From Dehalococcoidia bacterium (GTDB taxonomy: Bacteria > Chloroflexota > Dehalococcoidia > Plut-88900), in NCBI GenBank assembly GCA_965197585.1, contig OZ240215.1:1504001-1568000 (forward strand): a DNA stretch of 64,000 nucleotides, in the 5' to 3' direction. The notes beneath the pieces are model-generated. The model was given only the letters and a program-made list of their open reading frames with translations, was not told the origin of the DNA and did not search any database. The translations under genes were made by a program, and so were the position numbers. Of this stretch, positions 26,253-28,691 are shown piece by piece (the first letter of the stretch is position 1; each line of letters opens with the position of its first letter).

Positions 26253-26654
26253 CCCCACCCCCATTCCGAGGCCCCGCGAGGAATCTACAGCGCCCCTCCC
26301 TAATTCCACCTTGTCCGCTGAAACCCACCCACTCCATCCGTCATTCCGGCCCCCGAGCCGGAATCCAGCCCTTCCTTCTACCCAGTATTGAACTAGAGGC
26401 CCGCACGGGTGCTGTGCACCCGTGCGGGCCTCTGTTCTTATCTCCCCCCTAACGTCAATCCCGACTCCGATCGGGAATCCATCCCCCTCCCCCCAGTACT
26501 GAATTAGAGGCCCACGTGCGTGCAGAGCACGCACGTGGGCCTCTATTCTTATCTCCCCCTCTCCCTTGAAGGCCCTAAGGGAGAGGGGGACAAAGGGGGT
26601 GAGGGTTCCCCGGTGAGGCTGGGGAGGTGTCTCCCCAAGTGTGACATGAACCCC

Positions 26655-26684
26655 TTGACCCTACTTGAACACCCGTGCTATTAT
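26655..26684 (+). promoter_or_regulatory. Sigma-70-type promoter upstream of the candidate ncRNA
   Basis: TTGACC (26655-26660), 18 bp, extended -10 TGcTATTAT. Confidence 0.55.
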
Positions 26685-26873
26685 CCTCACCGTTCGAACA
26701 CCAGCCTAACTATCTCAAGGAGGAACCAAAAACCCAGGGAAGCCCACCCGGCCCCATCCGAGGACTCAACGCCTAAGCCCATCCCAACGGCCCATACACG
26801 GGGCCCGCGGCACAAGCGACCGGCGCCATCTCCTCATCCCCACCGGGTCCCGTGCACCCTTCCCTATCCCCCA

Positions 26874-27303
26874 GGCGATGGAAAGACGCCCTGGTTCGCT
26901 ATCGTTCCATGTGAGGCTCCTAACGGAGATGCCGCTCCTTCAAGCGGAATAGTGGTCGGATAGGCCCGGCGCCGAGGTCCTCTCGGTACCCCGACCGCTC
27001 AATCAAGCCGGGAGCCGGTGGTCCCTGCACTCCGGGTCGCACCGGCAAACTTGGACATATTACGCCTGCAAGAGGCTCCACCCGGACGCTGGACGAGCCT
27101 CCTAGCCGCCCTATAGCGGTGCAGCCAACCCCTCGGAGTCAGGCTCGGACTTGGTGGCCCTGACGGTCCCTGCCCATGTCCAGCGTATACAGGGCCAAAG
27201 GCCGCAGCAGCGGCAAAAGCGGGCCGGACGCCCTTGCCCCGGGGTGTCGGAGCACCCGAAGCACAGGAACGGGGGCAGCGTCCAGCAAGCGTCTTTCATC
27301 GCC
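26874..27303 (+). ncRNA. Candidate large structured non-coding RNA (family not recognised; strand inferred from the promoter)
   Basis: Closing helix 26874-26889/27289-27303, about nine internal hairpins and two long-range loop pairings; no credible ORF. Confidence 0.6.
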
Positions 27304-27390
27304 AACCACCCAGACAGAACAACCAAAACCCCACCCTCCCACAACTGAATAAACCGGCGTGTCACTATCCCACCCAACGAGTGCACTCCC

Positions 27391-27419
27391 TTGACCCCAC
27401 CCCCCAACCCCTCTAATAT
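27391..27419 (+). promoter_or_regulatory. tRNA promoter
   Basis: TTGACC-N17-TAATAT, 11 nt before the tRNA. Confidence 0.7.
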
Positions 27420-27430
27420 CTCCCCGCGAT

Positions 27431-27505
27431 GCGGGAGTAGCTCAGCGGTAGAGCCCCTGCCTTCCAAGCAGGCTGTCGCCGGTTCGAATCCGGTCTCCCG
27501 CTCCA
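27431..27505 (+). tRNA. tRNA-Gly (anticodon TCC)
   Basis: Acceptor GCGGGAG/CTCCCGC, D-arm AGCTCAGCGGTAGAGC, anticodon loop CTTCCAA, GGTTCGAATCC T-arm, U73 plus encoded CCA. Confidence 0.97.
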
Positions 27506-27506
27506 C

Positions 27507-28691
27507 TCACAGGCTCGCCAACGCCTGTCCCAGGTCCGACTCGATGTCCTCCGCCGACTCTATCCCGCAGGACATCCGGATCAGCCCGCCGTAGATTCCA
27601 ACCTCCTCCCGCTCCCCCTCCGTCAAAGACCTGTGCGACGTCTTCGCCGGGTGCGAAACCGTCGTGCACGTCTCCCCCAGGCTCGCCGCGAACCTGATCA
27701 TCTTCAAAGACCGTATGAACTTCGACGCCGCCTCCACCCCTCCCCTCAGCTCGAACGACACCATGCTCCCGAAACCACCCTCCAACGTCGACTTCGCCAA
27801 CTCATGCTGCGGGTGACTGTCCAGACCCGGATAGTGAACGGCCGCCACCGCCGCGTGCCCCGACAGATATTCCGCCGCCCTCGTGGCATTTTCGCAAGTG
27901 CGAGCCACCCTCAATGGCAGCGTCCGAATCCCCCGTACGATTAACCACGCTGCAAACGGGTCCAACGTACTTCCCCACACCCTGTTCGACTGCCGTATCG
28001 ACGCCATCGCCTCGAACCTCCCCGCCGCCACCCCTCCCATCACGTCCGAGTGTCCGCCTAACAGCTTCGTTGCACTGTGGATTGTCACGTCCGCGCCCAA
28101 TTCCAGGGGCCGCATCAGCAGTGGCGTCGCCAGCGTGTTGTCCACTACCACCTGCACGCCCCTCTCACCCGCCAACCGGGCAATCCCCTCCACGTCCGTC
28201 AGCCGGAGCAGAGGGTTCGTTAACGACTCGACGAGAATGACCTTAGGCAACCGCTCTAAAGCCCGCTCAACCAGCCCCAGGTCCGTCACATCCACGAGCT
28301 CCACCCGAACCCCGAGCCTCGGCAGATGTTGCCTCAGCAGCAGGTTCGTACCTCCGTACAACACGTCCCCCGCCAAAACCGTGTCCCCAGCCTCTGCCAT
28401 CGAAAGCAGCGTGTTACCGATCGCCCCCATCCCCGAGGCAAACGCCACCGCATCGTCGGCATTCTCCAGCTCCGCCACGACCCTTTCCAGGTTCTCCACG
28501 TTGGGGTTTCCATCTCGGGAGTAGATAAAGCCGTCTTTGTTTCCCGCATAGATGTCGTCCAGCAATTCCAGGCTTTCGACCTCGAAGACGGATCCCTGGT
28601 AAATGGGCGCCATCAAGGGCCTCGTCGCCGACTCCACGTCCCTCCCCGCCGACGCGCATATACTCTCCACCGACCGCCTCTTGCCGTTCAC
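27507..28691 (-). CDS. PLP-dependent trans-sulfuration enzyme (cystathionine gamma-synthase/methionine gamma-lyase family)
   Basis: YSRDGNP, FASGMGA, LYGGT, VDNT, HSATKLLGGHSD, SLG, SH, R.SCGIE; GTG start approximate. Confidence 0.92.
   Translation of the reverse strand: MNGKRRSVESICASAGRDVESATRPLMAPIYQGSVFEVESLELLDDIYAGNKDGFIYSRDGNPNVENLERVVAELENADDAVAFASGMGAIGNTLLSMAEAGDTVLAGDVLYGGTNLLLRQHLPRLGVRVELVDVTDLGLVERALERLPKVILVESLTNPLLRLTDVEGIARLAGERGVQVVVDNTLATPLLMRPLELGADVTIHSATKLLGGHSDVMGGVAAGRFEAMASIRQSNRVWGSTLDPFAAWLIVRGIRTLPLRVARTCENATRAAEYLSGHAAVAAVHYPGLDSHPQHELAKSTLEGGFGSMVSFELRGGVEAASKFIRSLKMIRFAASLGETCTTVSHPAKTSHRSLTEGEREEVGIYGGLIRMSCGIESAEDIESDLGQALASL

Follow-up and report, generated by a model that had tools for sequence, protein, structure and literature searches.

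A genus-specific, multicopy, non-autonomous mobile element with a promoter of its own and a covarying interior, inserted at promoter edges in a Dehalococcoidia bacterium

The tRNA-Gly locus and its repeat family

The stretch of DNA analyzed here, referred to as the window, comprises 64,000 nucleotides (positions 1,504,001 to 1,568,000 of contig OZ240215.1, assembly GCA_965197585.1) from the 3.43-Mb, 92% complete genome of a Dehalococcoidia bacterium, and our subject is a feature on its + strand that lies 5' of a tRNA-Gly(TCC) gene. An earlier note, made from the letters alone, had taken positions 26874-27303 of the window for an unclassified large RNA of about 430 nt upstream of that tRNA gene. 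The tRNA gene is located downstream as claimed (Table 1), and the feature is indeed structured, covaries in divergent subfamilies too and is without an Rfam match; it is not, however, a lone RNA gene but a single member of a repeat that occurs at least 57 times. Its limits were also set too narrowly, as homology with the rest of the family covers at least 26630-27385, and the RNA would not start at 26874: the likely transcript begins ~180 nt further upstream, behind the first promoter in Table 1. The family to which the feature belongs is a genus-specific, multicopy, non-autonomous element with inverted repeats, 6-bp duplications, insertion at promoter edges, a promoter of its own and a covarying interior.

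Table 1. Features of the copy in the window, with its surroundings.
Feature	Position in window	Strand	Remarks
Upstream hairpin-repeat modules	26339-26630	+	two tandem 111-nt composites, hairpin 26554-26590, hairpin GGGGAGGTGTCTCCCC
Inner inverted-repeat motif GTGACAT	26641-26647	+	partner GTGTCAC at 27359-27365
Sigma-70-type promoter of the unit	26655-26684	+	TTGACC, 18 nt, TATTAT, TG upstream; kept in all 57 units
C/A-rich conserved leader	26691-26873	+	little predicted structure; AAGGAGG 26717-26723
Closing helix P1, 5' strand	26874-26889	+	covaries between clusters
Structured body, cluster-5 type	26890-27288	+	hairpins H2-H12; pseudoknot 26965-26970/27007-27012; loop-loop 27086-27094/27178-27186
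Closing helix P1, 3' strand	27289-27303	+	pairs with 26874-26889
A/C-rich tail and right end	27304-27385	+	GTGTCAC 27359-27365 ... CAACGAGTGCA ending at 27385
CTCCCT	27386-27391	+	place of right-hand target-site duplication (NNNNNT), abuts -35 box
Host promoter of tRNA-Gly	27391-27419	+	TTGACC, 17 nt, TAATAT; kept in relatives without the unit
tRNA-Gly(TCC)	27431-27505	+	neighbor, outside the element

A DNA search of the same genome (G000 below; its relatives are G002-G005, and L-numbered loci are those of relatives) returned five more near-full copies at 79-94% identity, plus fragments, and alignment of the copies with their flanks extended the homology from a promoter-like region ~240 nt upstream of 26874-27303 to ~80 nt downstream of it. 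With profiles of the 5' and 3' parts, nhmmer located 57 complete 5' blocks in the genome, a lower bound on the number of copies; the 3' block lies within 1.2 kb of the 5' block in 45 of these 57 units, 294-485 nt further on. By block homology the units are ~0.66-0.9 kb long, and together they sum to ~42 kb, or 1.23% of the genome.

Every unit follows a common plan. It starts with GTGACAC-N3-CCCCTTGAC, 17-18 nt, TAYTATAWT, a short variable hairpin and AAGGAGG, and continues with a conserved C/A-rich leader of ~150 nt, a closing helix (GGCGATGGAAG.../...CTTCCATCGCC), an interior of 300-500 nt and an A/C-rich tail. In the leader of the window copy AAGGAGG is followed by GAGGACTCAACG..AGCCCATCCCAA and then by GCCATCTCCTC at 26825-26835. 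The interiors fall into eight BLAST clusters (14, 12, 10, 7, 6, 6, 1 and 1 members, the window copy being in a cluster of six), and the closing helix differs compensatorily between clusters, AGACGC/GCGTCT in some and AGGTCC/GGACCT in others. A promoter scan of the + strand of the window gave exactly two sites, those of the unit and of tRNA-Gly, compared with a mean of 0.3 in shuffles; from the sequence we infer a transcription start near 26691. The rRNA operon promoter was considered as a relative of the unit promoter and proved unrelated.

Each of the eight further species searched within the genus has the leader DNA, with 38-78 first-look candidates apiece; it is found in none of the three other genera of the family or the 29 other families of the class searched. 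In a pattern scan of species-representative genomes, all 80 listed of at least 92 stretches were titled "MAG: Dehalococcoidia bacterium." The covariance model of the body likewise matched only within the genus, in the own genome and four of five species, and in none of 135 other genomes of the class. The leader pattern had no match among viral contigs, and among metagenome contigs it matched five short contigs from one data set.

A second family of units, at about eight loci (G000:C1 62860, 505610, 684518, 1590859, 2280200, 3022084, 3035253 and 3386770), has the same promoter module and another leader (AAGGAGTCCCATGAGTCGCACC...). The hairpin of this leader covaries (CCGAGCGG/CCGCTCGG vs CCGGGCGG/CCGCCCGG), an ATG stands at the correct spacing after AAGGAG (AAGGAG-N4-ATG), and two of the units finish in the closing helix of the main family. 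In a relative's unit, L086 (~2823-2935), the main leader is duplicated in tandem, so that the GAGGACTCAACG...CCCATCCCAA motif occurs twice, 85 nt apart.

Inverted ends, target duplications and empty sites

About a third of the units start with GATCCCGTTCACATAGAGGGGTGACA and finish with TGTCACTAATCTACCGAACGAGTACA, which form imperfect inverted repeats of ~28 bp; aligned by eye, the left end agrees with the reverse-complemented right end at ~18 of 27 positions, with the cores CGTTC/GAACG and GTGACA/TGTCAC. From left end to right end the complete copies span 698-1102 bp. Of the 35 distinct left-end/right-end pairs compared, this genome supplied 15 and loci of relatives 20; some of the latter are orthologues of the former, so that fewer than 35 events are represented. 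The two 6-bp flanks agree fully in 16 pairs and at five of six positions in nine, compared with 1.1 and 3.4%, respectively, when the flanks of different elements are paired. The 15 pairs of this genome comprise seven perfect duplications, four at 5/6, two at 4/6, and one each at 3/6 and 2/6. The duplicated 6-mer (NNNNNT) nearly always has T as its last letter and TGAC-like sequence next, and the right end therefore abuts the -35 hexamer (T/TGAC) at a fixed register.

Insertion can also be read from unoccupied sites. For 33 units of relatives with collinear flanks in this genome, 19 of the corresponding sites are occupied, nine are short or empty and five are longer. The cleanest empty site (L021) reads GTGCTTTCGT/TGACAGC, and its occupied version has TTTCGT on either side of the element. 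The empty-site alignments at L034, L015, L041, L022, L103, L030 and L086 gave no clean junction, being too diverged or keeping remnants of the tail.

At the window locus itself G000 and G002 carry the unit (bodies 98.6% identical), and it is absent 5' of tRNA-Gly in G003, G004 and G005. Similarity of G005 and G004 to the window starts at 27386/27387, immediately past the right end, with the tRNA promoter intact there, and the empty site of G005 reads ..CTCCCT/TGACCCC. No left-hand copy of a target duplication was identified with confidence for the window unit. The 9 nt CTCCCTTGA, repeated directly at 26561 and 27386, are not claimed as such, because the left copy falls within a hairpin module that every B1-type unit has, and the right-hand 6-mer of another B1 unit is different.

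The modules at 26339-26630 also occur 5' of other B1-type units, and they are probably nested into the left part of the element, because in unit u937065 they stand between a canonical left end and the promoter. In each of the tandem 111-nt composites (26339-26559), a 33-nt hairpin (CGTCATTCC...GGAATCC) is joined by a perfect hairpin of 19 bp that, with the TTCTTATCTC behind it, resembles a terminator. Summed contig depth over 26300-26393 is very high in all four of the sequencing runs described below, and the small hairpin repeat is therefore widespread or abundant. Elsewhere, at G000:C1:659340-660640, a 1.3-kb insertion with inverted-repeat ends of its own lies between a unit's left end and promoter, and at G000:C1:3404962 a solitary left-end module (GATCCCGTTCACATAGAGGGGTGACATCACCCCC) abuts a promoter -35 box, followed by a CIRCE-like inverted repeat and groES; this module may be the remnant of a unit deletion.

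The units contain no transposase open reading frame (ORF) and no conserved ORF, and indels break the frames. In G000 no longer end pair able to hold a transposase was found, except for one copy with an inserted insertion sequence (IS), and TnpB, Y1 transposase and RVT_1 (reverse transcriptase) had zero hits there. Because no transposase partner with matching ends was found in G000, mobilization in trans is assumed. Nine IS110-type genes are present in G000 and were considered as partners; only two adjoin units, directly upstream of them, there is no systematic link, and inverted repeats with a duplication are the wrong hallmarks. These two genes, at G000:C1 1396256 and 3413422 (elements of ~1.16 kb), have the same orientation as their units and stand next to a module, ATCAATAAAACAGGGCGGGTGGGCGGG, which also precedes six other units without an IS; the module may be an IS target or an IS end.

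RNA-guided targeting was rejected as well, because a unit's complementarity to its own flanks does not exceed that to the flanks of others: the longest match averages 7.15 nt with the unit's own 22-nt flank and 7.22 nt with those of other units (13 units downstream, six upstream). Structured RNAs encoded within mobile elements and expressed from element-borne promoters are known in the IS110 bridge RNA and IS1111 seekRNA and in the IS605 omega RNA, and the present units resemble these in encoding a putative structured RNA behind their own promoter. They differ in having no recombinase or nuclease gene in or systematically beside them, no unit-specific complementarity to their own flanks, and inverted repeats with a 6-bp duplication, which are typical of DDE transposition.

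Covariation and diversity of the interior

The helices proposed in the earlier note were compared across 30 homologous bodies from seven genomes (29 of them distinct), here called the subfamily. The closing helix stands: 26881-26889 and 27289-27297 are exact complements, and the helix reaches 26874 and 27303. Over the proposed helices 92.9% of cells hold standard pairs, compared with 35-42% with slid partners; two internal stems are weak, gtcagg/cctgac being paired in only 76% of cells and the inner part of gggtgt/gcaccc in 66%. Pairs changed on both sides number 11 (4-8 when slid), and double-change cells 36 (4-13 when slid). The suggested pseudoknot cccggc/gccggg is borne out by pair 138/177, which is GC in 20 bodies, GU in five and AU in four, and the choice of strand by an excess of G-U-type over A-C-type cells (168 vs 82) that favors the + strand.

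The two hairpin loops said to be complementary are an exact 9-nt complement in the sequence. In the subfamily alignment the loop-loop pair 265/386 is UA in 20, UG in four and CG in three, and within cluster 5 a complement of 9-10 nt at a fixed offset was reached by 0-4 of 200 shuffles. A counterpart in cluster 2 was not accepted, as its pairing extends over only 6 nt and was reached by 38-49 of 200 shuffles. The H6 loop of clusters 1 and 7 (e.g., L116, L122 and L166) has CAGCTGGATCCC where cluster 5 has the kissing sequence ACGCTGGAC; CAGCTGGATCCC holds two 6-nt palindromes (CAGCTG and GGATCC) and has no downstream partner. Such self-complementary H6 loops could pair between molecules.

The fold extends beyond the subfamily. 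A model of H5-H7 built from cluster 5 alone found full-length matches in 25 of the 57 units, comprising 6/6 units of cluster 5, 1/1 of cluster 7, 8/12 of cluster 1 and 10/10 of cluster 2; BLAST could not link clusters 1, 2 and 7 to cluster 5. The alignment across these clusters shows two-sided changes in 13 of 19 pairs, pairing in 93.1% of cells (40-52% when slid) and a covariation score of 0.485 (0.055-0.109 when slid). Because helices covary between body clusters that BLAST could not link, the fold of the + strand RNA appears to be under selection. For the leader, RNAalifold on all 57 sequences gave only 12 pairs, none with a double change, and we treat it as conserved in sequence and, on this modeling, largely unstructured.

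The earlier note had proposed a scan against Rfam, and in the 64-kb window no Rfam 15 family except tRNA reaches its gathering score; the families below that threshold include RNase P, tmRNA, SRP, 6S, GOLLD, ROOL, OLE and HEARO. A permissive scan by E-value of 26500-27450 gave nothing credible within 26874-27303, and a gathering scan of 18 units covering all eight clusters matched only tRNA.

Bodies of the same type at orthologous occupied loci are 92-100% identical, about equal to or above the mostly coding flanks, and the leaders are often less alike than the bodies. At five orthologous loci (L046 vs G000:C1:1917694; L014, L081, L012 and L100) the body types are unrelated, with 50-56% identity, and the flanks are 85-97% identical. 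The comparison suggests that body types are swapped by recombination or cassette-like replacement, or that insertion has been repeated at hot spots. Cluster-4 bodies (e.g., G000:C1:851976 and L030) hold an ~85-nt module in two to three tandem copies (GCCGAGA..TCTCGG..GCGAGCTTACGC..TATCAAGC.AGGGG).

Interpretation and relation to known systems

We consider it likely that the 430-nt feature is the inner body of a large non-autonomous transposon, akin to the miniature transposable elements with inverted repeats known as MITEs, which has promoters as its targets and an ornate non-coding RNA as its transcript. The element, ~0.7-1.1 kb long, has multiplied to at least 57 copies here and to dozens in every sampled species of the genus; complete copies set their right end against a host -35 hexamer and are mostly co-oriented with the downstream gene. 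The unit promoter would drive a non-coding RNA of at least ~0.65 kb, opening with the unstructured conserved leader and its perfect Shine-Dalgarno-like AAGGAGG and passing through a closing helix of 15-16 bp and a many-helix body to the A/C-rich tail. Because no terminator follows the unit, transcription probably runs on into the neighboring gene, here tRNA-Gly. The AAGGAGG, which lacks a start codon, may bind ribosomes and stabilize the RNA; it recalls known Shine-Dalgarno-like 5' stabilizers. Our leading guess is that the RNA serves the element, through stabilization or processing of its transcript or in concert with a transposase provided in trans, and that added upstream transcription of the adjacent gene would be a side effect.

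A bolder form of this reading makes the ornate RNA part of the transposition machinery, delivering the element to the -35 edge, perhaps with RNA polymerase and sigma or the trans transposase, or self-assembling through its kissing or palindromic loops. We hold this form to be distinctly unlikely; if true, it would define a new class of RNA-dependent, promoter-targeting mobile element with interchangeable RNA cassettes behind one leader, and an exchange of cassettes between copies is suggested because unrelated bodies occupy orthologous loci.

Several observations weigh against a mobile element transcribed into a selected fold. Many of the double changes in cluster 5 are inherited by related copies, and the subfamily's count of pairs with double changes was reached in 43 of 500 shuffles. 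The cross-cluster alignment was fitted to the H5-H7 model, which inflates pairing, and compensatory changes are still numerous in it. Clusters 0, 3, 4 and 6 (28 of the 57 units) are unmatched by the body model and apparently have other interiors, so that a common fold can be claimed for no more than about half of the units. Folding energy is unremarkable and not strand-specific (z = -2.05 on the + strand and -3.08 on the - strand relative to shuffles); thermodynamics alone would not single out 26874-27303. An autonomous element with the same ends was not found in G000, the only genome searched for one. The window copy has no recognizable left end and a 5' side that is a mosaic of other small repeats, and because of this it may be immobile. 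As to size, the spans of the complete copies are 2-10 times those of the MITE examples of 39-400 bp and 178-235 bp in the available text of a review (PMC10969869), and because they exceed these we write only of a MITE-like element.

The evidence for transcription belongs with these points. Short contigs on parts of 26802-27310 come from two metatranscriptome runs (one study, labeled sponge metagenome) and from two runs of uncertain type; those of the metatranscriptome runs lie on parts of 26802-27270, and two contigs from RNA libraries differ from the window by one letter over 89-99 nt. The RNA-library contigs leave 26394-26770, 27334-27427 and 27522-27700 uncovered, from which, in a multicopy family, neither ends nor silence can be deduced. 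They are a weak hint of transcription and do not demonstrate it: depth is low, the libraries can contain DNA, and the contigs give no ends, strand or level.

Units might instead be host-domesticated cassettes, each a mobile promoter plus 5' leader selected for a function in cis, in which a strong added promoter, a ribosome-binding stabilizer (the AAGGAGG that lacks a start codon) and a folded leader would govern how the neighboring gene is expressed or processed. Such a reading overlaps our preferred one, differing only in the beneficiary, and we regard it as unlikely. When the longest ORF is taken as the downstream gene, it shares the unit's strand in 42 of the 57 units and lies on the opposite strand in the other 15; the upstream neighbor is divergent in 35 units and co-directional in 17, and five units have none. 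The co-oriented neighbors are real genes by Pfam, with matches for 27 of 30 sampled ORFs, yet their functions are unrelated: MFS transporters, the succinate dehydrogenase flavoprotein (SdhA), Lgt, peptide deformylase (Def), FAD synthetase (RibF), arginase, five Amidohydro_2 and others. A cis-regulatory leader or riboswitch was rejected for want of any consistent gene class among these 27. Some large ornate RNAs lie near tRNAs or in mobile DNA, and the earlier note had suggested a tRNA-linked RNA gene in the manner of GOLLD and ROOL; a tRNA is next in only two of the 57 units, which speaks against this and against a riboswitch. No terminator-like site was found on the + strand between the unit promoter and tRNA-Gly, and AAGGAGG is complementary to the 16S 3' end CCTCCTT, as a promoter with a 5' leader for the neighbor would have it, but the downstream genes retain a promoter of their own directly past the unit, and a covarying body of 300-500 nt would be needless in a simple promoter cassette. 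Reuse of promoters upstream of unrelated genes and promoters within MITEs are both documented, in the available texts of PMC3575422 and PMC10969869, respectively.

Less likely again is a family of trans-acting ornate RNAs, a scaffold or a self-assembling multimer, in which transposon-like spread merely multiplied the gene. The strong covariation across clusters, the loop-loop complement of cluster 5 with its change from U-A to C-G, and the palindromic CAGCTG and GGATCC loops on the corresponding hairpin of clusters 1 and 7 would suit such an RNA; ROOL, GOLLD and OLE form homo-oligomers, according to the available text of PMC12286853. The near-identity of same-type bodies at orthologous loci also fits, but at five such loci the body types are unrelated between species, and with 57 divergent copies and at least three unrelated body types no single copy is needed. 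The absence of an Rfam match, and of an associated protein gene among our findings, likewise counts against it.

A purely DNA-level selfish repeat, its helices being nested palindromic DNA modules without RNA function, is very unlikely. Small hairpin repeats do abound in the genome and nest into units, the units are modular and mosaic, and the + strand has no advantage over the - strand in folding z-score; against this reading stand compensatory changes that keep 13 of 19 pairs across clusters, the excess of G-U-type cells on the + strand, a consensus promoter kept in all 57 units and loop-loop pairing that covaries. A family of small protein-coding genes or leader peptides can be given almost no weight: a strong Shine-Dalgarno-like AAGGAGG stands close to the 5' end, the C-rich sequence yields recurrent ORFs of 60-160 amino acids in several clusters and the second leader type carries an ATG at the right spacing, but the main leader has no start codon after AAGGAGG, leader and body have indels of 1, 2 and 4 nt (those of the leader not being multiples of three) and variable hairpin insertions, no open frame is conserved among copies or spans the body in the window copy, and stem substitutions are compensatory.

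Returning to the transcribed, promoter-targeting element, its parts have precedents. Promoter-bearing prokaryotic MITEs include the Correia elements of Neisseria, MITEAba12, BrickBuilt, QMITE1 and SonMITE_1 (available text of PMC10969869). Like the present units, MITEs with sigma-70 promoters are described there as non-autonomous and multicopy, with terminal inverted repeats and target-site duplications, and as mostly intergenic, immediately 5' of genes, with promoters able to transcribe the neighbors. Beyond its length, the present element differs from them in the fixed register at the -35 hexamer, in a body of 300-500 nt that covaries between subfamilies, in the several interchangeable body types behind one conserved leader, and in having no known autonomous partner. 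RNAs transcribed from inside a MITE family are likewise known in Coxiella burnetii, where the small RNAs Cbsr3 and Cbsr13 derive from QMITE1 and Cbsr16 from QMITE2, their function being given as unknown in the same text (PMC10969869); those RNAs are small and their elements ~400 bp, whereas here the predicted RNA has at least 0.65 kb and an ornate fold backed by covariation.

With GOLLD, ROOL and OLE, as presented in the available text of PMC12286853, the predicted RNA shares a length of several hundred nucleotides, many helices, loop-loop contacts and the lack of a known protein partner. It differs in matching no Rfam model and in belonging to a family that is multicopy per genome, transposon-borne, genus-restricted and of several unrelated body architectures. 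Putative mobile promoters are alike in that highly similar promoter regions lie 5' of unrelated genes within a genome (available text of PMC3575422); here, in contrast, the vehicle is defined by its inverted repeats and 6-bp duplication, and the promoter is predicted to drive the element's own long RNA, with the host promoter intact downstream. In the open-access literature searched we found no described element combining a length of 0.7-1.1 kb, a fixed -35 register with the host promoter intact, co-orientation in about three quarters of cases and a covarying fold of 300-500 nt. Promoter-bearing MITEs and MITE-derived small RNAs are already known.

The practical warning is that what looks like a well-folded "novel ncRNA" (non-coding RNA) beside a tRNA may belong to a family of repeats. 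Should the RNA be made, dozens of promoters per genome would yield related structured RNAs and read into housekeeping genes, and the genus would offer a natural system for the rewiring of transcription by mobile DNA, for the choice of promoter targets by transposons and for the roles of large bacterial RNAs.

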